From the IMG/VR virus record IMGVR_UViG_3300020434_000055: DNA of 64,000 nucleotides; one strand, given 5' to 3'. The stretch is from a virus (Duplodnaviria > Caudoviricetes). Numbering within the stretch: the stretch's first letter is position 1; every line of letters begins with the position of its first letter. The translations under genes and the position numbers were made by a program. The notes under the pieces were generated by a model. It searched no databases. It worked only from the letters and a program-made list of their open reading frames with translations, and had not been told where the DNA came from. Below, one piece after another: positions 343-17,665 of the stretch.

Positions 343-1545
343 ATGGTACCAATAGATCCCTTCAAAAAAGTTATCGACACATTAAAAGCGAACGGCAATT
401 ACAGAGTTTTTAACGATGTATTGCGAGAAGCCGGACATTTTCCTAATACAATTTGGTATGGAAAACATAATATTAAAAAAGTAATTAATTGGTGTTCTAA
501 TGATTATTTAGGCATGGGTCAGCATAAAGTTGTTATGGACGCAATGAGAACAGCATTAGAAACTACAGGTGCGGGTAGTGGTGGAACAAGAAACATATCA
601 GGGACATCACATTACCATGTAGCTTTAGAAATGGAGTTAGCAAAACTTCATAAAAAGCCAGCATCACTTTTATATACATCAGCCTTTGTTGCAAATGAAT
701 GGACATTAATTTCTCTTAAAAAAATTATTCCAGATATAGAATTTGTTAGTGATAGTGAAAACCATGCTTCTATAATAGTAGGTATTAAAAATAGTAGAGC
801 ACTTAAACATATATTTGAACATAATAATTTAGAAGACTTAGAAAAAAAATTAAAACAAGTAAAAGGTACACCTTGCGTAATATTTGAATCTGTATATAGT
901 ATGGACGGTGACATAGGACATATTAAAGAAATTTGTGATATTGCAGACAAATATAATGCAATAACATTTATTGATGAAGTTCATGCAGTTGGATTATACG
1001 GTCATGAAGGTGCAGGATTTTTAGAAAAATTAGGACTACAAGATAGAGTAGATATTGTTTCTGGTGGCTGTGGTAAAGCATTTGGAGTAGTAGGTGGTTA
1101 CGTTGCCGGAGATGCCACAGTAATAGATGCAATCAGATCTGTGTCTTCAGGATTTATTTTTACTACTAGTAATAGTCCAGTAATATGTGCAGGTGCATTA
1201 GCTTCTGTAAAATTTCTTAGAGATGACGGCGGAAGAGAATTAAGACAACAACACCAACAAGCGGCAAGTCAATTAAGAAAGTTATTATTAGATGCTAATA
1301 TTGATATGGGCACCTCTACATCACATTTAATTCCAGTAATGGTTAGAGATCCAATTAAATGTAAAAAAATGAGTGACGCTTTATTATTAGAACATGACAT
1401 TTATGTTCAGCCTATAAATTCTCCTACGGTTAAACCTGGGACAGAACGATTAAGATTTGCTCCAACACCTTTACATTCTGAATCTATAATACATGATTTA
1501 GTAGACAAACTAAAGAAAGTTATGTTACAATTAGAAAATGAATGA
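343..1545 (+). CDS. hemA: 5-aminolevulinate synthase (Shemin pathway, PLP-dependent)
   Basis: WCSNDYLGMGQH, GAGSGGTRNISGT, DEVHAVGLYG, GKAFG (PLP Lys), VQPINSPTV.PGTERLR. Confidence 0.95.
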   Translation: MVPIDPFKKVIDTLKANGNYRVFNDVLREAGHFPNTIWYGKHNIKKVINWCSNDYLGMGQHKVVMDAMRTALETTGAGSGGTRNISGTSHYHVALEMELAKLHKKPASLLYTSAFVANEWTLISLKKIIPDIEFVSDSENHASIIVGIKNSRALKHIFEHNNLEDLEKKLKQVKGTPCVIFESVYSMDGDIGHIKEICDIADKYNAITFIDEVHAVGLYGHEGAGFLEKLGLQDRVDIVSGGCGKAFGVVGGYVAGDATVIDAIRSVSSGFIFTTSNSPVICAGALASVKFLRDDGGRELRQQHQQAASQLRKLLLDANIDMGTSTSHLIPVMVRDPIKCKKMSDALLLEHDIYVQPINSPTVKPGTERLRFAPTPLHSESIIHDLVDKLKKVMLQLENE

Positions 1546-2197
1546 ATCCGATTATAAAATAACCCCATTATGGGCAACGCCTTTATTTCAATCGACTCTT
1601 AAAAATATACCACAAGAGTGTAAAGACTATATTATGAAAAACGTTGAGTATAAAAGATATCCTGCTAATAATGGATTTGGATCAAAAAGTAAATTCTTAT
1701 TAGATATTCAAGCTCTTGCTCCACTTAAAAAAGTATTAACAGATGTTACACATGAATACCTTTATAAAATATTAGACATAGACGAATCCGCAGATTTTCA
1801 AATGACTAACAGTTGGTCCGTAAAACATATAAAAGGAGATGAGGCTGGACAACATCATCATGCTAATTCTATGTTAAGTGGAATTTTATATCTTCAAACC
1901 GATGAAAAAACCGGTGATGTTTTATTTGTTAAAGAAAGAAATCATTTTCCGTTATTCAATGATACAATACAAATTCCTTTTAAAGGCAACAACTATAACT
2001 TATATAATGTAGAAGGATGGGCAATAAAACCCAGAAACAATCAATTATTGTTATTTCCTTCACAACTTAGACACGAAGTATATCCAAACGAAAGCGATAC
2101 TGAAAGATATTGTATTGCTTTTAACTTCTTTGCATTTGGCAAATTTGGCTATGACGACCAAGTTCAATTAGGTATTAAAGATGTCACCCGTGACTGA
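1538..2197 (+). CDS. 2OG-Fe(II) oxygenase, TIGR02466-like
   Basis: HHHANSMLSGILYL, LLLFPSQLRHEV, RYCIAFN. Confidence 0.85.
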   Translation: MNESDYKITPLWATPLFQSTLKNIPQECKDYIMKNVEYKRYPANNGFGSKSKFLLDIQALAPLKKVLTDVTHEYLYKILDIDESADFQMTNSWSVKHIKGDEAGQHHHANSMLSGILYLQTDEKTGDVLFVKERNHFPLFNDTIQIPFKGNNYNLYNVEGWAIKPRNNQLLLFPSQLRHEVYPNESDTERYCIAFNFFAFGKFGYDDQVQLGIKDVTRD

Positions 2198-3044
2198 TAA
2201 AATTATTATAGGAACCCGTGGCAGTAATTTAGCTTTATCCCAAGCTCGAAGTATTCAAAAATTATTAGAAATTGATTCCGAAATAAAAATTATAAAAACA
2301 TCTGGGGACATCCATGAAAATAAAGCTATTGCTGATATAGGAGGCAAAGGTGTATTTTCAACACAAATTGAACAAGAATTATTAGATTCAAAAATAGATT
2401 TAGCTGTTCACAGTTTAAAAGACCTACCAGGCATAATGACAAAAGGTTTATGTATTAAAGGTGTTGCAAAAAGAAATGATCCCAGAGATGCATTGTTAGG
2501 AAAAATTAAAAAAGGATCTAAAATTGGTACTAGTTCTCCTAGAAGAACTGCCCAATTAAATTATATAAAAAAAGATATAGAAATACTTCCTATTAGAGGT
2601 AATATAGATACTAGAATTAAAAAACTTAAAGATGGACAATATGACGCAATAATATTAGCAATGGCTGGTTTACAAATGCTTGGTTTAGAAAACGAAGTTG
2701 ATAAAATATATGATCTTGATGAAATAAAACCTTGTGCAGGACAAGGCATCATCGCAATACAAACTAGAGACAACAATGATCCTTTAAATGATTTAATTAC
2801 CAAAATAAATGACATACCAACATTTTATCAAGCCCAAGCAGAACGTTCCTTGCTAGAAGCAATTGGAGGGGATTGTCATACTGCATTAGGATGTTATACT
2901 ATGGTATCGGCCTACCATCTTTATCTAACAAGTGAACTATATGTAAATGATAAAAAATATACTGCATCTGGTTCTGGTAATGTTATTGATGCCAAAGACC
3001 TTGGAATCAGAGTTGGTAAAGAATTGTTAGCTCAAACAGACTAA
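2181..3044 (+). CDS. hemC: Porphobilinogen deaminase (hydroxymethylbilane synthase)
   Basis: IGTRGSNLAL, GKGVFS..IE, DLAVHSLKD, GTSSPRR, IRGNIDTR, GGDC (cofactor Cys). Confidence 0.95.
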   Translation: MSPVTDKIIIGTRGSNLALSQARSIQKLLEIDSEIKIIKTSGDIHENKAIADIGGKGVFSTQIEQELLDSKIDLAVHSLKDLPGIMTKGLCIKGVAKRNDPRDALLGKIKKGSKIGTSSPRRTAQLNYIKKDIEILPIRGNIDTRIKKLKDGQYDAIILAMAGLQMLGLENEVDKIYDLDEIKPCAGQGIIAIQTRDNNDPLNDLITKINDIPTFYQAQAERSLLEAIGGDCHTALGCYTMVSAYHLYLTSELYVNDKKYTASGSGNVIDAKDLGIRVGKELLAQTD

Positions 3045-3687: not shown

Positions 3688-3813
3688 AATTTCTAATATT
3701 TATTTTTTTATTTTTTAGACTATTAACGAATAACACATAACAGCATTGTTATATGCGTACATTATACTACAGTTATGATTTAAGTTAAATACACTTACAA
3801 GAGGGAAGGGAGT

Positions 3814-6800
3814 ATGTCAGACCATTCAATTGGAAAAATTACAATTGCTGATGGTATCGTTGTAATTCAGCGAGATAATCAGTCTATAGAACTACAAGAA
3901 GGTGATTCTATCTATCTTAATGATATTGTAGAAGCTAAAAGCGGATCTGTTGGTATTACATTTACAGATGAAACTACATTTTCTATAGATGCAGGTTCTC
4001 AAGTAGTTGTAGATGAATTTGTTTACGATCCTGGTAACACAGGATCAATGAATATAAATGTCTTGGCAGGAAACTTCTCTTACATATCTGGGGAAATTTC
4101 TAAAATGGATGGTGACGTAGAAATTGTAACCCCAACTGCTACACTTACAGTTCAAGGTACCAATGTAGCAGGTAAAGTATCATTAGAAGGTGGTGGAGAC
4201 CAAATCGTATTACTTCCTAACGCAGATGGAACAGTAGGACAAGTTTTAATTACCAACCAATCAGGTAGTATATTATTAACTGAAGCATTTCAATCTACAA
4301 CAATTGCATCTGCTTTTATGCCACCAACTGTTCCTGTAATAATTCCTGAAGAAATTGTATTAAAAGAATTTGGTACTACAATTAATACTATGCAAAAAAT
4401 AAAAAAATTAGCAAAACAAGAAGCAGAAGAGGAAGTTGAAGAGGAAGTTGAAGAAGAAATTGAAGAGGAAGTTGAAGAGGAAGTTGAAGATCCATTTGAG
4501 GAAGAAATTAACGAAGAAGAATTAGAAGAATTAGAAGAAGAATTAGAAGAAGAAACACAACCAGTTGTTGACGAAGAAGTGGTTATTGAAGATGATATAT
4601 TTGAAGAAGAGCCAATTGTTGAAGAACAAGAGGATCAACCTGTCGTAGAAGATACAGTTATAGAAGATGAAATTATAAACGATGAACCTGAAGAGGAAGA
4701 TACTACAACAGAAGAGGATACTACAACAGAAGAAGAGGATACTACAACAGAAGAAGAGGATACTTATATACCACCTGTTATTCCTGACCCTGATCCTCCT
4801 GTTATTGAAGAGGACGAAGAAGAAGACATTTATGTACCACCTGTTACTGAAGAGGAAGATAACGACACTTATGTACCACCTGTTACTGAAGAAGATGAGG
4901 AAGAACCGGAAGTTAATGAAGCACCAACATTTGAAACAACAAGTGCTGTATCAGTTGCAGAAAGTCTTTCTAATGGATCAACTCTTGTTACTATGTCAGC
5001 AACAGATCCTAATACAGATACATCATTAAACACATTAACATATTCAATTACAGCAGGAAATGATGAAGGTAAATTTGCAATTAATTCATCAACTGGTGTA
5101 ATAACATATGCGACACAGGCGTCTACATTAACAACTCAAACATTTGAAAGTTTTTCTAATGGAGCAACAGCAACAGGATGGTCTGGTGATAATGCAGTTT
5201 TAGATACTAATAAATGGACAACTGTACTAGGAAAAATTAATGGTAGCATAAGTTCAACTCAAGACGTTTATAAAACATTTGACTATTCATCTGATTACGC
5301 AGGAAAAAGAGTTGCAATAGACTTTTTGTTTTGGGAGTGGGGTACTTGGGACGCACACAATTACAATCCAGATGGTGGAACAGAACAATTCCGTGTATAT
5401 GTTAATGATACAAATGTTGTTGCTGATGACAGACGTAAAGATGGATTTGGTGCAGGTGATAAAAAATATGGAGTAGAAACACAAAGCACTGGTTGGGATC
5501 CAGTACAAGATTCAAGCTTCTACGGTGACCAAGAAGGAGAACTTTATACAGTATATGGCACACTGGACGCAAGTGGAGATTTAAAATTAGGGTTTGGTAT
5601 GCGAGTTGGTGAAAGTGAATCCAATGAATCAGGAGCAATAGATAATTTAAAAATTTACTTAACAGATTTAAACTACGAAGATAATCAACAATATGTATTA
5701 ACCGTTCAAGCAAGTGATGGCAGTTTATCTGCAACCACAACACAAACAATTAATATAACAGATGTAAATGAAGCACCAAGAATGGAAGAAGCCAGAGATC
5801 CTGTATCAGTTGCTGAAGATACTGCTGACAATACAAACATAGCATCAATTTTTGCAGAAGATCCAGACGGTGACGATATTACATATTCAATTACAGCAGG
5901 TAATACAAATAGCAAATTTTCTATTACGTATTACAATTCTACAAATTCAGGTTTAATTGAAACAAACGGATCAATAGATTATGAAACAACACCACAATAT
6001 ACTTTAACTATAACAGCAACTGATGAAGGCGGTTTAACTACAACTACAACACAGGTTATTAATGTAACCAATGTTAACGAAGCACCAACTCTTGCTAGTA
6101 TGAATAATGTATCATTAGCGGAGAGTGTAAGCTCAGGTACATCAGTTGCAACTGCTTCGGGTTCTGATGTTGATGCAAGTACAACTTTAACATATTCAAT
6201 TTCATCTGGAAATAGTGCAGGCAAATTTGCAATTAATTCCAGCACAGGTGCTATTACTACTGCGGCATCACTAGATTATGAAACTACAACATCTTATACG
6301 TTAGTGGTTCAAGTAAGTGATGGATCTTTAACAGCAACTACAAATCAAGTTGTTAATATAACCAATGTTACAGAGCAATTCCAAGGAACAGCTAATTCTG
6401 GTACAGCGGCTACCTGGGGAGCAAATTTTAGTAATGATATGGTATTTGACAACGCATGGGCCAATGCCAAAATAGGATTTTTTGGTGACTTCCATAACTT
6501 TTCTACTTCTGAAAAAAATGTCATAACAAATATAGCAGAGGACTCTGCTGTAGGATTTGATGATGCCTTACACTTCGCTGACGGCTCAATAGACAATTAC
6601 ACATTTAAAGAGTTGTCAAACTATTCTATGGTTGTTGACTCTACGATAAGTGCATCAAATACATTTGACGATGAAGCATTAGTTCTAAACTTGTTAAGAG
6701 CAGGAACCACAGTAATGGTTGTAGGAGAGAACGCATATTGGGACATCGGCAATCACGCCAGTAATATGAAAATAGAATACATGGCAGATTTAATTGACAG

Positions 6801-7794
6801 TGACATAGATACTAACAATCGTCTTAGCATATTGAGTGGTTCAGATTCTGGAGGTTCTCCTACAGAGGGTCAAGAAATACAATCGGCCTACAACGTATCC
6901 TCTTATGGTGCAGATGATTCTGGCAGTTACGATACATCAAGAGGAGATGGACACGCCTTACCAGGTCGATTCCACGAAGAACATTTAGGATCAGGAGATC
7001 TTATAGCAATTGAAGACGATGGAGCATCCGTCGGAGAAAGACACGGTCACATCGCAGAATGGGACAAAGATGATTCAGACGCAGAATTCTTTGGTGCATA
7101 TATTGGACACGCAGACGGAAACGCATTTGAAAACTCTTGGGACGGCGACGGTAGAGTACAAGCAGACATATTTAAATGGGGATTAGAACAAAATCAAAAT
7201 GTAGATATTATAACAACCGACACAGAATATCTACCAATTGGTGGTTTAAAAACAACATATGGTTGGACCAATACTGCCAATAATACTAAAAGTTCTGTTG
7301 AAGCATTTCATATGGGTAACAATGTTTATATTGGAGGAGGTTTTGATCACTTAGATTGGGTGTGGGATGATTCAGCAAATGCGGCATTCATTGCTGTAAA
7401 CACGGACATGGATGGTGCAGATGAAAACGACGCTCCAACAAGACAAGATGACCATTACCTTGTTATTGGTGCTGATATAGATGGTGATGCAAATCTTTGG
7501 GAAACTACTGACGTATTTGATTTAGATAAAATCGGACTTTGGTCTGATTCGGACGACTTTTTAACACAAGACTCTGATGCTTCAGGCGATTACTACTTTA
7601 AAATTACACCGGTTACTTACGCAAACAGTTCATGGACAGTAGAAACTGATAATACAGTCACAATAGCTGATACATCAAATTATTACAATACAGGATACAT
7701 AGATTTAATGTCTAACTCAGATTTCCAAGACATTAACTACGCAATAATTGAAACGGAATCTGCTTTGATTTCAGATGTACTCGTAACTTATTAA
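3814..7794 (+). CDS. Large FecR-domain / acidic linker / cadherin-repeat protein (candidate T1SS substrate or adhesin)
   Basis: N-terminal FecR-like domain (GITFTDETTFSID..VVDEFVYDP..TPTATLTVQGT), Glu-rich linker, cadherin repeats (VNEAPTF, DVNEAP, NVNEAP; LDYETT..YTL.V..SDG), no signal peptide; TAAATA at 3786-3791. Confidence 0.8.
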   Translation: MSDHSIGKITIADGIVVIQRDNQSIELQEGDSIYLNDIVEAKSGSVGITFTDETTFSIDAGSQVVVDEFVYDPGNTGSMNINVLAGNFSYISGEISKMDGDVEIVTPTATLTVQGTNVAGKVSLEGGGDQIVLLPNADGTVGQVLITNQSGSILLTEAFQSTTIASAFMPPTVPVIIPEEIVLKEFGTTINTMQKIKKLAKQEAEEEVEEEVEEEIEEEVEEEVEDPFEEEINEEELEELEEELEEETQPVVDEEVVIEDDIFEEEPIVEEQEDQPVVEDTVIEDEIINDEPEEEDTTTEEDTTTEEEDTTTEEEDTYIPPVIPDPDPPVIEEDEEEDIYVPPVTEEEDNDTYVPPVTEEDEEEPEVNEAPTFETTSAVSVAESLSNGSTLVTMSATDPNTDTSLNTLTYSITAGNDEGKFAINSSTGVITYATQASTLTTQTFESFSNGATATGWSGDNAVLDTNKWTTVLGKINGSISSTQDVYKTFDYSSDYAGKRVAIDFLFWEWGTWDAHNYNPDGGTEQFRVYVNDTNVVADDRRKDGFGAGDKKYGVETQSTGWDPVQDSSFYGDQEGELYTVYGTLDASGDLKLGFGMRVGESESNESGAIDNLKIYLTDLNYEDNQQYVLTVQASDGSLSATTTQTINITDVNEAPRMEEARDPVSVAEDTADNTNIASIFAEDPDGDDITYSITAGNTNSKFSITYYNSTNSGLIETNGSIDYETTPQYTLTITATDEGGLTTTTTQVINVTNVNEAPTLASMNNVSLAESVSSGTSVATASGSDVDASTTLTYSISSGNSAGKFAINSSTGAITTAASLDYETTTSYTLVVQVSDGSLTATTNQVVNITNVTEQFQGTANSGTAATWGANFSNDMVFDNAWANAKIGFFGDFHNFSTSEKNVITNIAEDSAVGFDDALHFADGSIDNYTFKELSNYSMVVDSTISASNTFDDEALVLNLLRAGTTVMVVGENAYWDIGNHASNMKIEYMADLIDSDIDTNNRLSILSGSDSGGSPTEGQEIQSAYNVSSYGADDSGSYDTSRGDGHALPGRFHEEHLGSGDLIAIEDDGASVGERHGHIAEWDKDDSDAEFFGAYIGHADGNAFENSWDGDGRVQADIFKWGLEQNQNVDIITTDTEYLPIGGLKTTYGWTNTANNTKSSVEAFHMGNNVYIGGGFDHLDWVWDDSANAAFIAVNTDMDGADENDAPTRQDDHYLVIGADIDGDANLWETTDVFDLDKIGLWSDSDDFLTQDSDASGDYYFKITPVTYANSSWTVETDNTVTIADTSNYYNTGYIDLMSNSDFQDINYAIIETESALISDVLVTY
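4426..4915 (+). repeat. Low-complexity acidic tandem repeats (EEEVEEEV, EEDTTT x3, YVPPVTEE x2) in the linker
   Basis: gaagaggaagtt units near 4426-4490; gaagaggatactacaaca units near 4696-4760. Confidence 0.8.
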
Positions 7795-7798
7795 AATT

Positions 7799-9487
7799 AT
7801 GAACAAACTTATTATAACATTATTATTTTTCCTTTTATCCTTTAGCTGGAGTCATGCAGAAATTGAAGGCTCAGATGGATGTACATGGAAAGTAACTGAA
7901 GAAACAGATGAATATATAATGGAGAGCTGTGGTACTAATAATGCTAGGATCAGGCAAAAACATTCTATTGAAATGACTTATGTACCAAGCAAAGAAAAAC
8001 TAGTAAATCCTATAGACAAATTTAAAAAAATTGTTATAACACCAGAGGGAAAAGAAACTGAAAAAGAAATTAAAAAAATAGAAGAGGATATTACAATTAC
8101 AGAAAAAAAAGTTAAAGAGATAATTACAGATAAAGCATTAGAAGAAAAACAAATTATAGAAAGTGGAAAAAATGAAAAGATTATCAACGAAACAAAAGAT
8201 TCGTCAACTACGGATATTAAAGAAGAGATTAAAAAGAAAGAAACATTAACTTGGCAACGTCTCTATCAACTACTTCCAAGTCTTATTGTAAAAAACGAAA
8301 AAGTAAAAGCCGCAGAATTAGATTACGAAGCGGCGGTAGAAACATTAAAGAAAACGTATTCAGCATACTATCCACAAGTAACAATTACATATGGACATAA
8401 TTGGGAAGACGATAGAACACCATCAAAAAGTTCTACGGCTGGAGTTGATTCAATAAAAAATGATGGAAAACATGGCTACCAATCATCTATAACAATCACA
8501 CAAATGATTTGGGACTTTGGACGAACTAATTCTTTAATTGATATGGAACGAACAAAGGCTCAACAAACTTACTTTCATTTAGAACTTGCAAAAGAAGATC
8601 TTGTAATGGAGGCTATTAGTGCTTGGTTAAATTTAATGAAAACCTATAATGTACATGAAGCAAATAAAAAAATAGAAGCCAATGCATTGAAAACACTATC
8701 CATGACGATAGAAAAAGTTAAAAAAGGTGAAGCATCTAAATTAGAACAACTACAAATTGAACAGCAATATAGAACTTTCCAAACATTAACAATGACAAGC
8801 CAGTTAGCAGTTGATTCAGCAAAACAACGATTCCAAAATGTTTGGAGATTTAAACCTCTTGATGTTGCTAATATGCCTATGCCAATTACAGACTTGTTAG
8901 GATTAATACCTGATTCAGGAGCATCTGTAAGAAGTAACACTACATTAAAAATTGCAGATGCAGATATTGAAATTGCACTAGGGCAACTTAGATATGATAA
9001 CGCAGAGTTTAAACCAAGAATAGATGGTAAATTATCTTACACAGAAAAAGAAGGTGAACTAGGCGGAGCATACAATGAACAAAAAGAAGAGTGGAGAGCA
9101 GATATTACATTAAGTTGGAAAATATTTGGTGGATTTTCTAACGTACATCAAAAAAGAAGTGATATGGCAAAACTAGGTTCTGCAGAACTTAGATATGAAG
9201 ACGTTGTAAGAATTGTAAATGAACAATTTAACAATGCTTGGAACAATTACGTATTAGTTGAAAAGAACTTAGAAACACTAAAAAGAACTGTTGAAATTAA
9301 CAAAGAAATGTATGCCTTAACACTTGAAGATTTTAAAGCAGGTAACTCTCCTATCATAGCTGTATTTGGAATGAAGACAGCATATATCATGAGCGAAGTT
9401 GCTTACCAAAATGCACAAATTGACCTTTTAATAGCAAGATATCAATTACATAAAGTTCTTGGACTCGTAGATCCCATCTTCAACTAA
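7799..9487 (+). CDS. TolC-family outer-membrane channel with charged N-terminal extension
   Basis: Signal peptide; two-repeat OEP pattern (YYPQVTIT, QMIWDFGRT, FKPRIDG, LSWKIFGGF, ARYQLHKVLG). Confidence 0.85.
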   Translation: MNKLIITLLFFLLSFSWSHAEIEGSDGCTWKVTEETDEYIMESCGTNNARIRQKHSIEMTYVPSKEKLVNPIDKFKKIVITPEGKETEKEIKKIEEDITITEKKVKEIITDKALEEKQIIESGKNEKIINETKDSSTTDIKEEIKKKETLTWQRLYQLLPSLIVKNEKVKAAELDYEAAVETLKKTYSAYYPQVTITYGHNWEDDRTPSKSSTAGVDSIKNDGKHGYQSSITITQMIWDFGRTNSLIDMERTKAQQTYFHLELAKEDLVMEAISAWLNLMKTYNVHEANKKIEANALKTLSMTIEKVKKGEASKLEQLQIEQQYRTFQTLTMTSQLAVDSAKQRFQNVWRFKPLDVANMPMPITDLLGLIPDSGASVRSNTTLKIADADIEIALGQLRYDNAEFKPRIDGKLSYTEKEGELGGAYNEQKEEWRADITLSWKIFGGFSNVHQKRSDMAKLGSAELRYEDVVRIVNEQFNNAWNNYVLVEKNLETLKRTVEINKEMYALTLEDFKAGNSPIIAVFGMKTAYIMSEVAYQNAQIDLLIARYQLHKVLGLVDPIFN

Positions 9488-9510
9488 TAAAATCATTAAA
9501 TACAACTATA

Positions 9511-10263
9511 ATGAAAAGTCTAATTCAACATCTATCCCGCGATAAAAAAACTGCTTTGATGTTATTAATCAGTAGTTTAATTATTGGTATATGTGCATTG
9601 ACTCCTGCCTTATTTGTAATCATTGTATTAAACAAGTATCTTGCATCAGGGATTACAGCAACTTTAATATCGTTAACAGCAGGGGCCGTATTAGCTTTAG
9701 GTTTTGAATTCACATTTAGACAAAATAGATCAATAATGATGCAGGAATTTAATCGAAAAATTTATGATCCATTACTAAAAGCATTTGTAGAAAAATTAAA
9801 AACAGTTCAAAATTTACCTACTAACGAATTTAAAAAATTAGATGGTGCTGGTACTATGATTAAAAATATGCGTACCTCATCAGTTACTAGTTGGATATTG
9901 GATTGGCCATTTGTATTATCATTTTTAATAGTTTTAGTTTTTATAAACTGGACCGCGGCTGTTATAACTGCAATTTTTATGATTATATTAAACAGAGTTA
10001 TTACATGGAGAACAAATTTAAATCTTACACAAGATTCTATGTCTAGTGTTGAAATCCTTATAACTGGATTATTAACATTGTCAATTATTGCCATTGGAGC
10101 ATTAATGATTATGCAAGGACGTTTAGATGTTGGAACTTTAATTGGATCTAACATATTAGCCGCGAGAGCATTACAAGGAACAAACAAATATACAAAAGCA
10201 AAGGAGTTTATACAACAACGTGATAGAGCAGTCTCAGAAATCGTCAGTTTCGTCAAGCAGTAA
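9511..10263 (+). CDS. T1SS ABC-transporter transmembrane domain only (no NBD)
   Basis: ALTPALFVIIVLNKYL..TLISLT, LDWPF, G.LDVGTLIGSNILAARAL resemble PrtD/HlyB TMD; no Walker A/B. Confidence 0.75.
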   Translation: MKSLIQHLSRDKKTALMLLISSLIIGICALTPALFVIIVLNKYLASGITATLISLTAGAVLALGFEFTFRQNRSIMMQEFNRKIYDPLLKAFVEKLKTVQNLPTNEFKKLDGAGTMIKNMRTSSVTSWILDWPFVLSFLIVLVFINWTAAVITAIFMIILNRVITWRTNLNLTQDSMSSVEILITGLLTLSIIAIGALMIMQGRLDVGTLIGSNILAARALQGTNKYTKAKEFIQQRDRAVSEIVSFVKQ

Positions 10264-10945
10264 ATTCTTTTTAGGAATTACAGCTTTATTTGTAGCATTC
10301 ATAGTATGGATGTGGTTTGCTAAAGTAGATATTACTACTCAAGCAGTAGGATATGTTGTACCTGAAAGTAATTTTACTTCCATAGACACAATGGTTAATG
10401 GACAAGTTATTGAAGTAAAAGTTAAACAAGGTGATTCAGTTAAAAAAGGAGATGTAATTCTTATTATTAATCCAGGTGTAGGTTATGAACCTTATAATGT
10501 AATTGCTAATATAGATGGACGAATACAAACTTTAAATTATAAAAATCCTGGAGCAGTTGTTAATAAAGGTGAAACCATAGTGTTACTAGTCCCTGTAAAT
10601 CAAAAGTTAATTGTAACAGGTAAACTATTTGTTAAAGATAGAGGCTATGTTGAAGTAGGACAATCAGCAAAAATTAAACTTGCTAATCAAGATCAATTAA
10701 AATTTGGACCTATTGATGCAACAATAATATCTATATCGCCAGATGCAGTACAATCACAACAAGGAACTTGGTATGAAATAGAATTAGAACTTGAGCAACA
10801 AAAATTTACTTCAGGTAGTATTGATTATACATTAGTGCCGGGTATACAAGTACAAATCTTTATATTAACTGGTGAAAGAACAATATTAAGTTATGTTACT
10901 ACACCATTCCATAATAGTATAGGACAAGCCTTACAAGAAAGATAA
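10220..10945 (+). CDS. HlyD-family membrane-fusion protein lacking the alpha-helical hairpin
   Basis: TM anchor, GQVIEVKVKQGDSVKKGDVI, IDGRI..PGAVVNKGE, VEVGQ, ISISPDA, LVPG, TGERTILSY; GTG start with AAGGAG at 10201. Confidence 0.85.
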   Translation: MIEQSQKSSVSSSSKFFLGITALFVAFIVWMWFAKVDITTQAVGYVVPESNFTSIDTMVNGQVIEVKVKQGDSVKKGDVILIINPGVGYEPYNVIANIDGRIQTLNYKNPGAVVNKGETIVLLVPVNQKLIVTGKLFVKDRGYVEVGQSAKIKLANQDQLKFGPIDATIISISPDAVQSQQGTWYEIELELEQQKFTSGSIDYTLVPGIQVQIFILTGERTILSYVTTPFHNSIGQALQER

Positions 10946-10946
10946 T

Positions 10947-13142
10947 TTAATCTGTTTGAATAATAGTTATTTCTGGTTTAGTAGTATCTGTACCAATTGT
11001 TATATTTTGAGTTTCTGAATCTTGAACTATTTGAATATCTGCAGATTTATCCGTTTCAGTTTTTATATATGCAGTATGACCACCATGCGTTCTGTTTACA
11101 ACTGAATAATTTCCACTTGTAGTAGCAGTAGCATCATCTTCATTGCCACCTGTTGTAAATCTTCCTGTTGCTGTTGTACTTTCACCATCTGTTGTTGTAG
11201 TTTGAGTAAGTTCACCTGTTGTATAATTAATAATTTCACCACTAGTTGTTACTGTTGTTTCTGATCCACTATTGTCAACCCATTCTGTACCACAAGACTG
11301 AGCCGCATTATTCCAATAGTAACCCCAGTTAACACAATCTTCTTCATTATCAATTTCTGCTAACCATAATTCTAATTCTAAATCTTGATCATAATCATCT
11401 TCGTAACCATACTCTTCTTCTAATGATACTGAATCATCATCTTCTTCATACTCGCCATAGTAATACCAGGCATAAGTCCAATCATAAAATGTTTGCCAAT
11501 CGTTCCAAGTCCAATCAGCAATATACTTGTCTTTTAAACTTGGCATATCCCACGGAGCAGGTTGACCTTCACACATTTCCCATTTATAACTGCTTACCCA
11601 ACACCATCCATACCATTTGTTGAAAAGTTGTTTAGATTCTGATGTCCATGAAGTATAATTTTTAAACAACTTCCAGTCATCTGTATACCAGTCATTTAAG
11701 TAATCTATATATTCTTGATTACACCAATCACTACCATAGCCATTGTAATTACAATAATTTTCTATTGTTAAAGTTGGCGGACCTCCATTTGCTATGTAAT
11801 CTGCGTTAGCATAATATTCATCATTTAAAGCAAAATCTTCCCAAGTGTATCCTTCAACTGTAGACGTTGCTTCTTCTTCAACTTCTTCAGATTTATCTTC
11901 TACTTGATTATCATAAGCCGTTAAACCATAATCTTCTAATAGGTCGTTATATTCTTCCATATATTCGTCCCAATTAACTTCATCCCAATTAATAGAATCC
12001 CAATTAATTGTGTCCCACGTACAATCTGAACAACCTATTGCGTCAAAGTATGCTTGGTCCATTTCTGCATACATCTGTTTAGCATCATCCCAATCCATTG
12101 TTTGTTCGCCTTCAGCGTCCCATACTGATATTTGATTGTCATCATCTATATAACCCCAATCTTTTAAATCGTCTTCCCATTCATCATAGTAAGATGTGTC
12201 TATGTCTGATTCTACTACTTCGTCTACTACTATATCTTGAGTAGAACTTGTATCTATTTCACTTGATTGTGTTGTAAAATCTTCAACTACCGCCGTAGTG
12301 TCTGATGTTAGTGTATCTGATTCAATTGTTAATTCCTCTGATACAATTTGTTCTTCTATTTCATTAGCTTCTTTGGCATCCATTTCTATTTCTAAAGTTT
12401 CTTGTTCTAACAACTCATTAGATTCAAACATTTCTTTTTCATTTTCTAAAAATTCGTTATTATCTTTTCTATCAAATTGAAGGTCGTTTTTATCTTCAAT
12501 GTCGTCTTCTACACTATCTAAATCAAATAAATTCTTTTTCTGAAGATTATCTAATGGGGATGGTGCCCTAGGTACTAGGTTATCACTAAGAACTGTTACT
12601 GATGTATATACTTGAGTTATTGTTTGAGAGCCTGCATCATTAGAAACTGTAACTGCTCCTACTTGTCCAGAAGAATCAGGAAGTAATGTAATTGTAGTAA
12701 CACCGCTTGTTGATACTGATCCTGAAAATGCTGTACCTTGTACTGTAATTGATGCTGTTGGCGTTACAATTTCAACGTCTCCTCCTAACTTAGAAACTTC
12801 GCCAGACTCATAGGTAAACGTTCCTACGTTAACCGATACGTTCATTGAAATTTCTATTGGTACAACTGTTGTATCAAAAGCAAATTCATCAATTAAAAAT
12901 TCTGTATTGGGTGCAAGAGTAACTTTTGTATTATCTACGAACACAATGTTCATAGCACCATCTTCTCCAGTTTGGAGAAAGTCATGCATTTCTAAAAGAT
13001 ATCCTGAAACAACCTTATAAGTTTTTCCTGAACGTTCATTAAACGTAGAACCCATTTTATCTTTAACTTCACCTACAGTTATAGCTAAAGCATTTGTAAC
13101 AAATAGTATTAAAAATGATACCACAAAGAAGAACTTCTTCAT
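10947..13142 (-). CDS. Secreted FecR-domain protein with acidic Trp/Tyr/Cys-rich C-terminal region
   Basis: Signal peptide MKKFFFVV..NALA (ATG 13142; ORF track starts at 13151); FecR domain paralogous to 3814 gene. Confidence 0.8.
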   Translation of the reverse strand: MKKFFFVVSFLILFVTNALAITVGEVKDKMGSTFNERSGKTYKVVSGYLLEMHDFLQTGEDGAMNIVFVDNTKVTLAPNTEFLIDEFAFDTTVVPIEISMNVSVNVGTFTYESGEVSKLGGDVEIVTPTASITVQGTAFSGSVSTSGVTTITLLPDSSGQVGAVTVSNDAGSQTITQVYTSVTVLSDNLVPRAPSPLDNLQKKNLFDLDSVEDDIEDKNDLQFDRKDNNEFLENEKEMFESNELLEQETLEIEMDAKEANEIEEQIVSEELTIESDTLTSDTTAVVEDFTTQSSEIDTSSTQDIVVDEVVESDIDTSYYDEWEDDLKDWGYIDDDNQISVWDAEGEQTMDWDDAKQMYAEMDQAYFDAIGCSDCTWDTINWDSINWDEVNWDEYMEEYNDLLEDYGLTAYDNQVEDKSEEVEEEATSTVEGYTWEDFALNDEYYANADYIANGGPPTLTIENYCNYNGYGSDWCNQEYIDYLNDWYTDDWKLFKNYTSWTSESKQLFNKWYGWCWVSSYKWEMCEGQPAPWDMPSLKDKYIADWTWNDWQTFYDWTYAWYYYGEYEEDDDSVSLEEEYGYEDDYDQDLELELWLAEIDNEEDCVNWGYYWNNAAQSCGTEWVDNSGSETTVTTSGEIINYTTGELTQTTTTDGESTTATGRFTTGGNEDDATATTSGNYSVVNRTHGGHTAYIKTETDKSADIQIVQDSETQNITIGTDTTKPEITIIQTD

Positions 13143-13144
13143 GA

Positions 13145-14236
13145 TTAACACCCGTTGGATACGTTTTGAGTAAGATTGCCGGATTGATTATTTCTATTGT
13201 ACGAATATGTACAAGTATCTGAACCGTCTTGTGTAAAGTTTAATGTATAATCGTAAATTGAATCACCTGATACAGTAACGTGAGCTGTATTACTTCCACC
13301 TGTTTGAGCAAAGTTTATATTTGAATCATCTGTATAGATATAAATTCTAGCAGTATTATTTCCACCTGCCATATGTAGTCCTAATGTATTATCATCTCCA
13401 GATATGTACGTTCTCAAATAATTGCCGTCACCCAATATCGTCATAGTATCTCCATAAGGATCAGTATCAACACTAGTGTAACTAGAGTGAATATCTAAAA
13501 TATTTGAACTACCTATAATATCGTGAAGTTGATAATTGCCCGTACCATACGATGAAGTGTGTAATCTATTTGAATTACCAACTATATAAACATCAATTGA
13601 TGCACCTTCACTTCCTGATGAATCTGCAAACTGACTATGCGAAGCAGTTTGTGGACCAATTGCCTTATTAGCATTTGTATTAAATCCTTCTGAATCAGCA
13701 GTGCTATAAAACTGTACATCATTTGAATCTCCCGCCATACGAACATATAAGAAATGATCATCACCTCTACTACGAACCCAAAAAGTATTTGAATCTCCAT
13801 AGATATCTAAATCAACGTTAAGATTGTCCATATCATCGGCGCCCCAGGCGTCAAAATCTACAATGTTTAAATCACCTGTAATATCTATGTCATAATAATG
13901 ACCAGAAGAATTCGTATCATCTATATCAGGTCTCAATTTATTACCATCACCAGTTGCTGTATAATCAAAGGTCATATTAGTACCTTTAAAAGATAAGTGA
14001 TACGAATTATCAGTTACATTTGAATCACCTATTTGTTTAATAATAACAGTTAAATTGTTTCCATCAATTTTAAAAGGAGCACTAGCACTCATTCCAAACG
14101 TGTTGTTTGAACCGTCTTGTTTTATGTAAATGTCTTGACCTGTTTGGCCAATTTGTGTTATATAGACTTGATTACTTGCATAACAATTAATCGTCGTTGC
14201 TAGTAACAATATCAGACTCAATAATAATGCTTTCAT
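13145..14236 (-). CDS. Curlin-like repeat (beta-solenoid) protein
   Basis: Signal peptide MKALLL (ATG 14236, GGAGG SD at 14243-14247); many hxhxhxGxxN / QxGxxN repeats; directly after csgG. Confidence 0.7.
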   Translation of the reverse strand: MKALLLSLILLLATTINCYASNQVYITQIGQTGQDIYIKQDGSNNTFGMSASAPFKIDGNNLTVIIKQIGDSNVTDNSYHLSFKGTNMTFDYTATGDGNKLRPDIDDTNSSGHYYDIDITGDLNIVDFDAWGADDMDNLNVDLDIYGDSNTFWVRSRGDDHFLYVRMAGDSNDVQFYSTADSEGFNTNANKAIGPQTASHSQFADSSGSEGASIDVYIVGNSNRLHTSSYGTGNYQLHDIIGSSNILDIHSSYTSVDTDPYGDTMTILGDGNYLRTYISGDDNTLGLHMAGGNNTARIYIYTDDSNINFAQTGGSNTAHVTVSGDSIYDYTLNFTQDGSDTCTYSYNRNNQSGNLTQNVSNGC

Positions 14237-15467
14237 CTGCAACCTCCAATGCGGCTTTAGTGTCATTCATTTCTGCTTGTAATTTTACTTTACGATCTTC
14301 TTTCATCTCGAGCTTTAATTGTTTCGCAACTAATATTTTTAAGTGTTCTTGATATTCTGCCCAAGTTTTAAATTCTGTACCGTTAGCTTTATTGTACCAA
14401 GCTAATTCATTTTTTTGAACTTTCTTTAAATGTTTTTTAGCCAACAATGCGGCTTTCTTAGCTTCTTTCTCTGCCAACAATGCTTCTTTTTTAGCTAACT
14501 TCTCTGCTTTAATTAATTCTTTTTTAGCTTTCTTCTCTTCTAATAATGCAAGTTTTTTAGCTTTCTTCTCTGCTAGGTATTCTTCCCTTGTTTTAACTTT
14601 TATTATTGTTTGTTCAACATCTAATGATACCTTTTCTTCAGTTACTACTTCTGCATCTGATTCTTCAATAACTTCTGGTAGTACTGGTTCAGGTGGTAGT
14701 TTAATTTTCCATAGTTCTTTTTTAGCACCTACTTGTATAATTTCTGCAACGCCGGCTTCAATTGCTTTTCTTACAGCAAAAGTTACTGGTTCGTTTCTTG
14801 CCACTCCTGCTTCTGATTCTAATAACATTGTATCAGCATCAAAGTATTTGAATATATCTGCACCTTTTCCTGTTGAGAATATTGTTTTTTCGATTGTTGT
14901 TGATATAACAACCTCACCTGTTTGCACATTTACTAATCTTAAAATAATAGTAACTACATCCTGTCTGTATTGTGTATTGGCTTGTACGCCTAAAATTCTT
15001 GCACCTATTCCACCTGATTTAGTATCTGAATCGTAACCTACTATACCACCTGTAATATAAGCACCAGCAAATAGTAATGCTGGTAATGGTTCAGCATTAT
15101 CTCCATCTGCCATTTGTCTTGTTGATCTAATAAGTTTTCTTTCTTGTAATAGACTTGGTAGACTTGCTCTTTCAACAACTCTAAACCATTTGCCGTCTCC
15201 AACATCTTGTAATGCTTTAATTAAAATTTGATATGAACCTTGAGTTACTGCTGTACTCATTGATGCAAAATTGCCACCTGGCTTCTTTTGTCCAGTCATA
15301 TCTAAGAAGTCATACACAGCAATTATAACAGGGTCTCCATCTAATTCAGGAACCTCTATATATGTTTTTGCAGTTGGTACTTGAGTTCTAAAATCAAAAT
15401 CTGGTTTTCCGGCGCAACTAGCTAAAAACAATGTTGCTAAAAATATGATTGCTAATTTTTTAAACAT
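14187..15467 (-). CDS. csgG: CsgG curli secretion channel lipoprotein with Lys/Ala-rich C-terminal extension
   Basis: Lipobox LASC; VYDFLDMTGQKK, STAVTQG, WFRVVER..L..LLQERKLIR, GGIVGYD, QYRQDVVT..LRLVNVQTGEV. Confidence 0.9.
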   Translation of the reverse strand: MFKKLAIIFLATLFLASCAGKPDFDFRTQVPTAKTYIEVPELDGDPVIIAVYDFLDMTGQKKPGGNFASMSTAVTQGSYQILIKALQDVGDGKWFRVVERASLPSLLQERKLIRSTRQMADGDNAEPLPALLFAGAYITGGIVGYDSDTKSGGIGARILGVQANTQYRQDVVTIILRLVNVQTGEVVISTTIEKTIFSTGKGADIFKYFDADTMLLESEAGVARNEPVTFAVRKAIEAGVAEIIQVGAKKELWKIKLPPEPVLPEVIEESDAEVVTEEKVSLDVEQTIIKVKTREEYLAEKKAKKLALLEEKKAKKELIKAEKLAKKEALLAEKEAKKAALLAKKHLKKVQKNELAWYNKANGTEFKTWAEYQEHLKILVAKQLKLEMKEDRKVKLQAEMNDTKAALEVADESIIIESDIVTSNDD

Positions 15468-15472
15468 TATTA

Positions 15473-15922
15473 TTAGTCTTCCTTCGGCATTGTAAATGTT
15501 GTTACAGTTCCATCAGTTTCAGTCACAGTAACAACTACGTTACCTGTGTTAGGTGTAGTCCAAGTTACAATTTCTCCACCAACTGGTGATGTAAATGTTC
15601 CTGAATCTTGTTGTAAGCCGTCAGCACCAAATACGTTTGTTGTAATTTGTTTTGCCAATGCTGTATAAAATCTTGATTCTAAATTTGCTTTGAATTTTGC
15701 AATCGCAGTATTCTTTGCATCTTGCTCTGCTTTGTCAGCCGCGGCTTTTTCAGCGGCTTTTATAGCATCTTTTCTTGTTTTTTCTATGTTTTCAATAGTC
15801 AAATAGTGTGAACTTTTGCCCTCTCCACTAAAAGATGGGCTATGAAACTTAAAACCTATTTCACTGGCGTTTACACCAGTCATTATAAAGCAAAATAGTA
15901 ATATAGCTGTTAGAATCTTCAT
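15473..15922 (-). CDS. csgF: CsgF curli assembly component
   Basis: Signal peptide then SEIGFKFHSPSFSG; adjacent to csgG; ATG 15922 with GAGGAG SD (ORF track start 15934). Confidence 0.75.
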   Translation of the reverse strand: MKILTAILLFCFIMTGVNASEIGFKFHSPSFSGEGKSSHYLTIENIEKTRKDAIKAAEKAAADKAEQDAKNTAIAKFKANLESRFYTALAKQITTNVFGADGLQQDSGTFTSPVGGEIVTWTTPNTGNVVVTVTETDGTVTTFTMPKED

Positions 15923-15959
15923 TGTACTCCTCAAATTTGTCTAATTCTATTAATGTTAA

Positions 15960-16011
15960 TATTTATGCACAACCAATCAGATAAACTAGTCGGTTAAAGT
16001 TTACTTAAATA
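15960..16011. promoter_or_regulatory. Divergent late-type promoters between csgF and the cyclase
   Basis: Minus-strand ATAAATA (tatttat 15960-15966) and plus-strand TAAATA 16006-16011. Confidence 0.55.
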
Positions 16012-16021
16012 TTATACTATT

Positions 16022-17665
16022 ATGTCAAAACTTTTAACAAGCAAATGGGCAGTTTGTATCACTTTATTGATTCTTTTACTCATTAAGTGGGCAGACCCAA
16101 CCCCTATTCAATCAGCAAAACTTACGACCTTTGATTCTTATCAAAAATTTGGACAACACCTTGACTCAAAGAGCTTAATTCTGTTAGATATATCCGATGG
16201 ATCCTTAACAAAAGGAGGTCAATGGCCTTGGAAACGAGATAACATAGGTCGAGTAATAGTTAATGCATATCGCAATGGCGCCGCCTTGGTAGTACTTCAA
16301 GTCGTATTTGCACATAAAGATAGGCTAGGTGGAGATGAAATGTTTCTTAAAATGATTTCAAGATATCCAATTATCCTTACTGAAACTAATGATGTTAAAA
16401 ACTTGCTCAGCATTGAACGAAAAGCACTTGCAATAGGTAACGTAGATGTACCTGTTGATATAGATGGCACAATAAGAAAACTTCCACTTGAAAATTCTAT
16501 TCCAGAAGTAGTACTAAAAGTAATCAAGTTTCCTACTAAAGCAAAAAATGACATATGGATAGACTTCCGTCATCATATTCCAAGAATAGATGCTACTGAT
16601 AAAGACTGGTCAGCAATGAAAGGCAAAATAGTTTTTATTGGAACTACATTTAAAGGTTCAACATTTGTTACTACTCCTAATGGCTTAAAAAATACACACG
16701 AGATAATGGCTATTAGTACTGAAACATTATTGTCAGGCAAATTTATTAGTAGACCAGATTGGCTAGAAAAAATGGAATGGGCATTTGTTATTATAGGAAG
16801 TATACTATTTCTAATTTTAATTCCAAGACTAGGTGTCCTATGGAGTTTTGTACCTATTATAGTTTATCTAAGTATTGTCCTTGGAGCAAGTGCTTACCTA
16901 TGGACAACAAATCTATATCTTACAGAATGGTTAACACCTGTTGTAATTGTTACCTTTGTTTGGGGACATTTAATATACAATAATTTTGCACGTGAGAACA
17001 GATTAAAATTACAAATCAAAAGACAGTTTGAACACTACCTTGCACCCGACATGGTTAAGAAGTTACAAAAAGATCCTTCACTATTAAAACTGGGTGGCGA
17101 AACAAAAACAATGACATTTATGTTTTCAGACATACGAGGCTTTACTCCTATATCAGAAAAATTTAAAAGCAATCCTGCAGGACTTACAAAACTTATTAAC
17201 AGATTCTTAACACGTATGACAAATGTTGTAATTGCTAATAATGGAACTATAGACAAATTCATGGGCGATTGTATTATGGCATTTTGGAATGCACCAATTG
17301 ACGTTAGAGATCATCAAGGTTGTGCTATTAGAACTGCTTTATTAATGACCGTTGAATTAACTGCATTAAACAAAGAACTAAAAGCAGAAGGACTACCTAC
17401 CATTAACATAGGCATAGGAATTAACACAGGTAAAGCACTTGTAGGAAATATGGGTTCTGATCAACGGTTTGACTACTCTGTAATAGGAGACCCTGTTAAT
17501 CTTGCATCACGTTTAGAAAGTTCTAGCAAAACTTTAGGTGAAACTATAATAATTTCAGAAAATACTATACAAGGCAGAGAGCATTTATACCCTTTTAAAT
17601 TCATAGATAGCATTACTGTTAAAGGTAAAACCGAAAAAATCAAGGTTTATACAATAACAACTTAA
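16022..17665 (+). CDS. CHASE2-domain class III adenylate/guanylate cyclase
   Basis: N-terminal TM, CHASE2 (QWPWKR, VDIDGTIRKLPL), 3 TMs, FSDIRGFT, IDKFMGDCIMAFWNAP, GIGINTG..VGNMGS..RFDYSVIGDPVNLASRLE. Confidence 0.95.
   Translation: MSKLLTSKWAVCITLLILLLIKWADPTPIQSAKLTTFDSYQKFGQHLDSKSLILLDISDGSLTKGGQWPWKRDNIGRVIVNAYRNGAALVVLQVVFAHKDRLGGDEMFLKMISRYPIILTETNDVKNLLSIERKALAIGNVDVPVDIDGTIRKLPLENSIPEVVLKVIKFPTKAKNDIWIDFRHHIPRIDATDKDWSAMKGKIVFIGTTFKGSTFVTTPNGLKNTHEIMAISTETLLSGKFISRPDWLEKMEWAFVIIGSILFLILIPRLGVLWSFVPIIVYLSIVLGASAYLWTTNLYLTEWLTPVVIVTFVWGHLIYNNFARENRLKLQIKRQFEHYLAPDMVKKLQKDPSLLKLGGETKTMTFMFSDIRGFTPISEKFKSNPAGLTKLINRFLTRMTNVVIANNGTIDKFMGDCIMAFWNAPIDVRDHQGCAIRTALLMTVELTALNKELKAEGLPTINIGIGINTGKALVGNMGSDQRFDYSVIGDPVNLASRLESSSKTLGETIIISENTIQGREHLYPFKFIDSITVKGKTEKIKVYTITT

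Follow-up and report, generated by a model that had tools for sequence, protein, structure and literature searches.

Why should a bacteriophage encode the subunit of a bacterial surface fibre directly behind the pore that would export it, and is the protein concerned really such a subunit? The question is raised by viral record IMGVR_UViG_3300020434_000055 of IMG/VR (Duplodnaviria; Caudoviricetes), of which a stretch of 64,000 nucleotides was analysed, hereafter called the window. Its minus strand carries a gene at 13145-14236 (ATG at 14236, stop codon at 13147-13145) whose 363-residue product, P0001, had been described in a first-pass annotation made from the sequence alone as a curlin-like secreted protein and a phage-encoded functional amyloid. 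The curlin-like, secreted character is borne out by Pfam matches among the orthologues, by a sole match in the PDB that is CsgA, by a solenoid model and by the position of the gene behind csgF and csgG, and the protein belongs to the curlin (CsgA/CsgB) family in a degenerate form. We consider it likely that it is a Sec-exported, strongly acidic β-solenoid, that the phage's type VIII pore (CsgG together with CsgF) exports it as cargo and that it forms fibres or a coat; its description as a functional amyloid is an inference. Genes for curli fibres have already been described in phages of Pelagibacter, and this one is a further, somewhat unusual example.

On its own, the protein scores 17.0 bits against the Pfam curlin repeat model (PF07012, Curlin_rpt; E 0.006), for which the gathering cut-off is 20.7 bits, while 14 of 39 orthologues match the same model at E ≤ 0.01 (best 6.6e-8) and the homologues in two cultured phages, Methylophilales phage Melnitz and Pelagibacter phage HTVC008M, score above the cut-off. 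A search with the curlin repeat hidden Markov model, which the first-pass annotation had named as a check, thus gives matches for part of the orthologues and for the cultured-phage homologues, and a score just short of the cut-off for the protein itself. A profile built from the family finds the curlin genes of Melnitz and HTVC008M at E-values of 1e-12 to 4e-18, and when it is run against all PDB sequences it returns a single match, CsgA (8enq, E 0.0097). The family is narrow: the protein has 338 homologues at E ≤ 1e-3, its members fall into 62 clusters at 50% identity among 1.8 billion proteins, and those ESM Atlas neighbours that share Curlin_rpt and have a recorded taxon are all in viral clusters.

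The repeats themselves are those by which curlins are recognised, namely tandem units of about 22 residues made of two 11-residue half-motifs, and under BLOSUM scores the sequence is most similar to itself when displaced by 11 or by 22 residues (autocorrelation z 4.4-4.5). The mature protein contains 13 G-x-x-N arcs where 3.8 are expected from composition, a number reached by none of 20,000 shuffled sequences, and the nine motifs cited in the first-pass annotation (QDGSNN, QIGDSN, TGDGN, YGDSN, AGDSN, VGNSN, LGDGN, AGGNN and QTGGSN) can all be found in it. Across the 39 orthologues the glycine and the asparagine are invariant in every arc, and positions G-2, G-4 and G-6 are occupied by hydrophobic residues or glutamine, the alternation expected of strand residues that face inward. 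Measured against the Asn/Gln ladder kernel of the curlins (N-$-Psi-$-Psi-$-Q), the protein has the asparagine in all arcs and the glutamine, at G-2, in 3 of 13, the other arcs having isoleucine (six), methionine (two), alanine (one) or serine (one); this level of retention fits the 'degenerate' class of CsgA described by Sleutel 2023 (PMC10192328). Methionine and isoleucine had been correctly listed as replacements of the repeat glutamine, but histidine and tyrosine, listed with them, lie at G-1 or G-4 and never at G-2. The distribution of what is left is uneven, in that all seven Q-x-G motifs are at residues 28-68 and 311-351, which is to say at the two ends, so that canonical Q-x-G-x-x-N rungs are kept at both termini (28-73 and 311-356) around an interior with a hydrophobic core.

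Read from its N-terminus, the protein opens with a predicted signal peptide of 20 residues (14177-14236; this and the following segments are on the minus strand), the pattern of which was read from the sequence as K2, a hydrophobic run and C-Y-A|S with the cut after C-Y-A; it is kept in the orthologues, coincides with a helix at residues 2-18 in the AlphaFold2 (AF2) model and agrees with the first-pass annotation. Cys18 was considered as a lipoprotein site and rejected, since the asparagine at -1 is unlike a lipobox and the cysteine is missing in one relative (L008). The N-terminal solenoid block follows (residues 22-172, 13721-14173), with six rungs of 22-28 residues, of which the first two have Q-x-G-x-x-N and the first three carry arc insertions. 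It is separated by a non-repeat insert (residues 173-212, 13601-13720) from a C-terminal block of regular 11-residue half-repeats modelled as strands (residues 213-345, 13202-13600), which contains the best Curlin_rpt stretch (303-326) and aligns with CsgA at profile positions 274-331. The insert has a predicted local distance difference test (pLDDT) score below 50, yet N190, I193, G194, P195, H200, A204, D205, G208, E210, G211 and A212 are all invariant in the 39 orthologues. Equally invariant are C363, in the C-terminal tail (residues 346-363, 13148-13201), and C342, which lies 21 residues or about one rung upstream in the preceding block; the two may form a disulfide.

With 44 acidic and 14 basic residues among 342, the mature protein has a net charge of about -30. 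The first-pass annotation had suggested His/Asp-rich faces that could bind metal. Aspartate is indeed frequent (42 residues), but the idea is left without support by the small number of histidines (9), by the interchange of arc aspartate with asparagine among orthologues (the arcs read G-[DNS]-x-N) and by the lack of any match at E ≤ 0.1 between this protein and HemolysinCabind (PF00353), the model of the GGxGxD nonapeptide of RTX proteins. The protein does resemble RTX β-rolls and region IV of the Ca2+-dependent MpAFP (3p4g) in its acidic turns rich in Gly, Asp and Asn and in its flattened solenoid, and its model superposes on 3p4g with a Z score of 17.2 and a root-mean-square deviation (rmsd) of 2.7 Å over 235 residues at 9% identity. 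It differs from them in having neither the nonapeptide nor the HemolysinCabind match, in the exchange of its arc aspartates and in a genomic context of type VIII rather than type I secretion.

A predicted fold other than a stacked β-solenoid was one of the two outcomes that the first-pass annotation had named as refuting its proposal; AF2 gives such a solenoid, with CsgA fibrils as its top matches. The full-length model is all-β (pLDDT 72.5, predicted template modelling score (pTM) 0.76), with low confidence at residues 190-210, 250-262 and in the tail. The N-terminal block modelled alone (residues 22-175) with a more diverse alignment reaches a pLDDT of 90.3 and a pTM of 0.86, and in each predicted rung the G-x-x-N arc joins a strand of 7 residues to one of 5, after which a short arc containing glycine leads on. 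In an exhaustive structural comparison the CsgA fibril of Pontibacter korlensis (8c50) came first for the full model (Z 21.4, 22% identity over 256 residues), about 4 Z units above generic β-helices (Z about 17, 5-11% identity), and for the N-terminal block the CsgA fibril of E. coli (8enq) ranked first at Z 12.2, followed by that of Pontibacter at Z 11.6 and 20% identity. Foldseek against the PDB gave nothing at E ≤ 0.001 for either model, only weak rows of β-helices. As modelled, then, the rung architecture resembles that of a curlin, a β-solenoid with two strands to the rung.

The handedness of the models is a separate matter. Right-handed helices (SufD, CAP, FHA) superpose on them at 2-3 Å, and left-handed ones (CsgA, NeuO, OatWY, the ryegrass IBP) at 9-10 Å; because the rmsd divides by hand in this way, both models are read as right-handed mirror topologies of the left-handed CsgA. 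The AF2 models of the full protein and of the N-terminal block are thus probably of the opposite hand to CsgA. The same ambiguity of AF2 has been reported for genuine CsgA when alignments are shallow (Sleutel 2023, PMC10192328). We note that the opposite hand was masked by the distance-based Z scores and exposed by rmsd alone. A homodimer prediction for residues 22-363, made without controls, scored 0.00 and has no bearing either way.

The gene that encodes this protein is supported by its open reading frame and translation, by its homologues and by the ratio of nonsynonymous to synonymous substitution (dN/dS), which in pairwise comparison with four metagenomic relatives is 0.20-0.43 and indicates purifying selection. 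Its 5′ end overlaps the 3′ end of csgG by 50 nt (14187-14236, minus strand), such that the first 16 curlin codons lie over the last 16 codons of csgG in a different frame, and a GGAGG Shine-Dalgarno sequence (14243-14247, minus strand) is situated within csgG codons 6 nt 5′ of the curlin ATG. The first-pass annotation had correctly placed this sequence and the start codon inside csgG codons and given the overlap as 50 nt; the span of 13145-14247 that it gave for the feature is right at the stop codon, but its other end takes in the GGAGG, the coding sequence ending at 14236. The overlap is identical in length in the four relatives (L003, L006, L008 and L010; contigs of up to 168 kb), whose proteins are, in descending order, 88 (L006), 72, 59 and 48% identical to this one, even as the length of CsgG varies among them (354, 370 and 425 residues where complete), and the relatives keep the M-K start and a purine-rich Shine-Dalgarno sequence. 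A longer curlin frame from an ATG at 14266 was rejected, as that ATG is absent from the relatives.

Since the curlin start lies 50 nt inside csgG, translational coupling of the two genes is plausible, and 'translationally nested', as the arrangement had been called, is too strong a term for an overlap of 16 codons. The RNA around the Shine-Dalgarno sequence and ATG (86 nt) folds with -10 kcal/mol (z +0.98) and shows no structure that would hide the start, so no structural switch is proposed. Within 10800-16100, sigma-70-like promoters and terminators occur at chance level, and T4-type TATAAATA boxes are rarer than expected, with none inside the operon. Contigs from RNA libraries of four studies match the gene in pieces only, which is a weak sign of expression given that DNA carry-over is possible.

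Upstream on the same strand lie the parts of a type VIII secretion pore. The csgG gene (14187-15467, product of 426 residues) is identified by PF03783 (5.6e-50) and by E. coli CsgG (5e-45), and csgF (15473-15934, minus strand) by PF10614 (3.1e-12), no sequence relative of CsgF having been found in the PDB at a useful E-value. In CsgG the lipoprotein pore core occupies residues ~8-257 and is followed by a C-terminal extension of some 170 residues rich in Lys, Glu and Ala (~14187-14700). The length of this extension varies among relatives, yet its last 16 codons stay fixed to the overlap. The constriction loop (residues ~60-73, ~15270-15310) reads Gly-Gly-Asn-Phe-Ala-Ser-Met in place of the Tyr-Pro-Ala-Ser-Asn-Phe of E. 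coli and is one residue longer, so the constriction of the phage channel may be altered.

Downstream, 2 nt past the curlin stop codon and at the same position in relatives, begins the last gene of the operon, which encodes a secreted FecR-domain protein of about 731 residues (10947-13142, minus strand, from an ATG at 13142; PF04773, 1.7e-07). Divergent from csgF is a gene for a CHASE2 / class III nucleotide cyclase (16022-17665, plus strand; PF05226, 6e-27; PF00211, 9.8e-22), which also accompanies the module in the metagenomic relatives and in the two cultured phages, Melnitz and HTVC008M. The order csgF-csgG-curlin-FecR is shared by the metagenomic relatives. Between 10947 and 17665 the five genes take up all the space, so that neither csgE nor csgC could be accommodated; a second curlin copy is lacking and the FecR protein has no curlin tail attached to it, only one reading frame of the window matching the family profile, and no Gly-rich targeting segment of the N22 type, as the mature N-terminus opens directly with a repeat strand. 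In E. coli, CsgE, CsgC, the separate nucleator CsgB and N22 are accessory parts.

The window as a whole is from a marine myophage of the T4 type, with HTVC008M and Melnitz as its closest cultured relatives. Nearly all of its open reading frames are on one strand; strong PHROG matches identify ribonucleotide reductase subunits and a DNA ligase; a baseplate gene resembling T4 gp9/10 has relatives among the structural genes of cyanomyophages; and its CsgG is closest to those of HTVC008M (51% identity) and Melnitz. A megablast search of phage records with 10 kb of the window gave no match. The same layout, genes and cultured relatives confirm that the curlin-like gene is phage-encoded, as had been supposed.

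The published accounts of modules of this kind are in part contradictory. The record of HTVC008M (2013) already has csgF and csgG, the latter overlapped by a gene annotated as 'curlin minor subunit CsgB' (AGE60350), as well as AGE60352. A description of the gene cluster was given by Zaragoza-Solas 2020, with 'sibling capture' as its suggested function. In the Melnitz record (MZ577097) two 'curlin associated repeat proteins' (gp101 and gp103) flank the FecR protein, while the accompanying paper (Buchholz 2022) stated that csgA and csgB are missing and proposed that the pore acts in lysis as a gated secretin or pinholin. Wittmers 2022 (PMC9599517) reported that pelagiphages of both the podo- and the myovirus type have fibre genes like csgA/B together with FecR and adenylate cyclase, with such genes at all 65 GOV2.0 stations and matches in metatranscriptomes, and csgE missing from all of the modules. 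In our analysis both annotated proteins of the Melnitz GenBank record (L001, 6172-8966) pass Curlin_rpt, and this, together with the family-profile matches and the record's own annotation, contradicts the statement that csgA and csgB are missing; on this point the evidence sides with Wittmers 2022.

The window resembles the pelagiphage modules in its set of genes (csgF, csgG, a curlin-like gene, a FecR-domain protein and a nucleotide cyclase) and differs in a number of details. There is one curlin copy instead of the two of Melnitz and HTVC008M, and it is of the long form, aligning end to end with gp103, the longer and second of the Melnitz copies, at 26% identity; it stands directly after csgG, whereas its counterpart gp103 comes after FecR. 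It overlaps csgG by 50 nt, a length that does not vary within the lineage, compared with 17 nt in HTVC008M; the FecR protein is about twice as long, and CsgG has the tail of 170 residues. With bacterial CsgA, on the other hand, the protein shares the signal peptide, strand-arc-strand rungs of about 22 residues with the N...Q-x-G-x-x-N kernel in the terminal ones, linkage to csgG and csgF, and a two-sheet β-solenoid in the model, for which 8c50 and 8enq are the best structural matches. It departs from CsgA in the replacement of interior glutamine by isoleucine or methionine, in the arc insertions, the 40-residue insert, the Cys pair and the marked acidity, in having no N22-like segment, CsgE, CsgC or separate nucleator, and in being encoded by a virus whose presumed hosts have no curli.

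How these parts might work together can be outlined as follows. Upon infection the csgF-csgG-curlin-FecR operon would be transcribed, and ribosomes finishing csgG would keep the curlin start open, so that pore and cargo would be made together. The unfolded subunit would then cross the periplasm, leave through CsgG/CsgF and, once outside the cell, fold into stacked strand-arc-strand rungs, and subunits would probably join end to end through their terminal Q-x-G-x-x-N rungs, so that the infected cell would be covered by a coat or bear fibres. Following the literature, this may serve to aggregate cells ('sibling capture') or to keep other phages out. A more elaborate version, which we regard as doubtful, sees the single long curlin as a pre-stabilised 'brick' that is hydrophobic inside and displays the amyloid Q/N kernel on its terminal rungs for docking, with the insert and Cys pair limiting polymerisation and the 50-nt overlap fixing the ratio of pore to cargo; a brick whose polymerisation is controlled by its own insert and Cys pair would not need a separate CsgB nucleator.

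Several observations weigh against a polymerising cargo of this pore. The protein itself scores under the Pfam gathering threshold, the core glutamine is kept in only 3 of 13 arcs, and the superposition on CsgA structures has an rmsd of about 9 Å. The conserved insert of 40 residues breaks the solenoid, and the invariant pair C342 and C363 has no counterpart in the CsgA of E. coli or P. korlensis; if oxidised in the periplasm it might impede passage through the narrow CsgG channel, and insert and Cys pair alike are features that could cap or block polymerisation. The constriction loop is unlike that of E. coli, the window has no N22-type segment, csgE or second curlin copy to act as nucleator, and no clumping was seen in Melnitz infections (Buchholz 2022). 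The main rival explanation gathers up part of this: the protein would be descended from curlins and exported through CsgG/CsgF, but would remain a secreted, non-polymerising β-solenoid such as a monomeric or capped adhesin, a coat or a cation-binding scaffold. Interior rungs with a hydrophobic core in place of a Gln ladder, an insert and a Cys pair that could cap an end, a net charge near -30 and the fact that no clumps were seen with Melnitz are all consistent with it, as is the fact that such proteins superpose well (the antifreeze protein 3p4g at 2.7 Å, Z 17.2; SufD at 2.2 Å); terminal imperfections are what stops polymerisation in proteins of this type (Sleutel 2023, PMC10192328). Yet it is exactly at the termini, the presumed docking sites, that the canonical Q-x-G-x-x-N rungs (28-73 and 311-356) have been retained, and fixed metal sites are hard to reconcile with arcs in which Asp and Asn alternate. 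Retention of CsgF also speaks for polymerisation. The known role of CsgF is the nucleation and anchoring of fibres. On balance we hold a non-polymerising solenoid to be unlikely, if a serious competitor.

It might also be asked whether the pore is the functional unit, acting as an uptake channel or in the timing of lysis, with the curlin-like protein reduced to a plug, gate or regulator. The gated secretin or pinholin of Buchholz 2022 would be such a case, and the absence of csgE, the altered constriction loop of CsgG and the presence in the module of FecR and cyclase genes, which hints at regulation, are compatible with it. That proposal, however, had missing csgA and csgB as its premise, which the Melnitz GenBank annotation and the matches found here contradict, and a solenoid of 342 residues and many rungs held under purifying selection far exceeds the needs of a plug, so that we find this explanation improbable. 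Still less credible, to the point that we give it almost no weight, is a component of the virion, a β-helix like that of a tail fibre or tailspike: tailspikes do appear among the weaker structural matches, at 5-10% identity compared with 20-22% for CsgA, but the gene has a predicted cleavable Sec signal peptide and sits inside the csgF-csgG operon, in a region of replication and auxiliary metabolic genes, not in the structural module. A curlin-family cargo that assembles on the cell surface thus stays our preferred reading.

Were fibres truly to form, planktonic cells would become sticky on infection in a way they had not been before, with a bearing on aggregation, superinfection and carbon export. 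Ocean viromes contain phage curli modules widely, and the hosts (SAR11, OM43) are without curli genes. The window introduces no new concept; what it adds is a documented variant of the lineage, characterised by a single long copy, Q-x-G rungs at the ends only, a conserved 40-residue insert and a C-terminal Cys pair, along with a high-confidence model of one block. A literature search turned up no experiment on whether any phage curlin forms fibres, and for a first biochemical study of a viral curlin this protein would be well suited.

The surroundings of the operon offer some further observations. The cyclase gene is divergent and upstream of csgF in the window and in L003 and L006, whereas L008, Melnitz and HTVC008M have it behind FecR and in the same orientation; the gene is thus inverted relative to the two cultured phages in only some members, and its differing placement implies that an inversion or relocation occurred within the lineage. 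Converging on the curli operon from the other side, plus-strand genes at 3814-10945 encode a cadherin-repeat protein of 1326 residues (PF00028, 2.6e-42) followed by a TolC-like OEP protein, a membrane protein of 250 residues with no Pfam match and a short HlyD-like protein. This set, shared with L006 (the relative at 88% identity), resembles a pared-down type I secretion system carried by a phage. Farther out, at 343-3044 on the plus strand, are consecutive genes for a class I/II aminotransferase, a 2OG-Fe(II) oxygenase and a hemC-like porphobilinogen deaminase (PF01379, 5.8e-67), and in relatives (L003 at 3745-6729; L008 at 11238-12935) the module has a glutamine synthetase gene and OpuAC/ABC-permease genes beside it.

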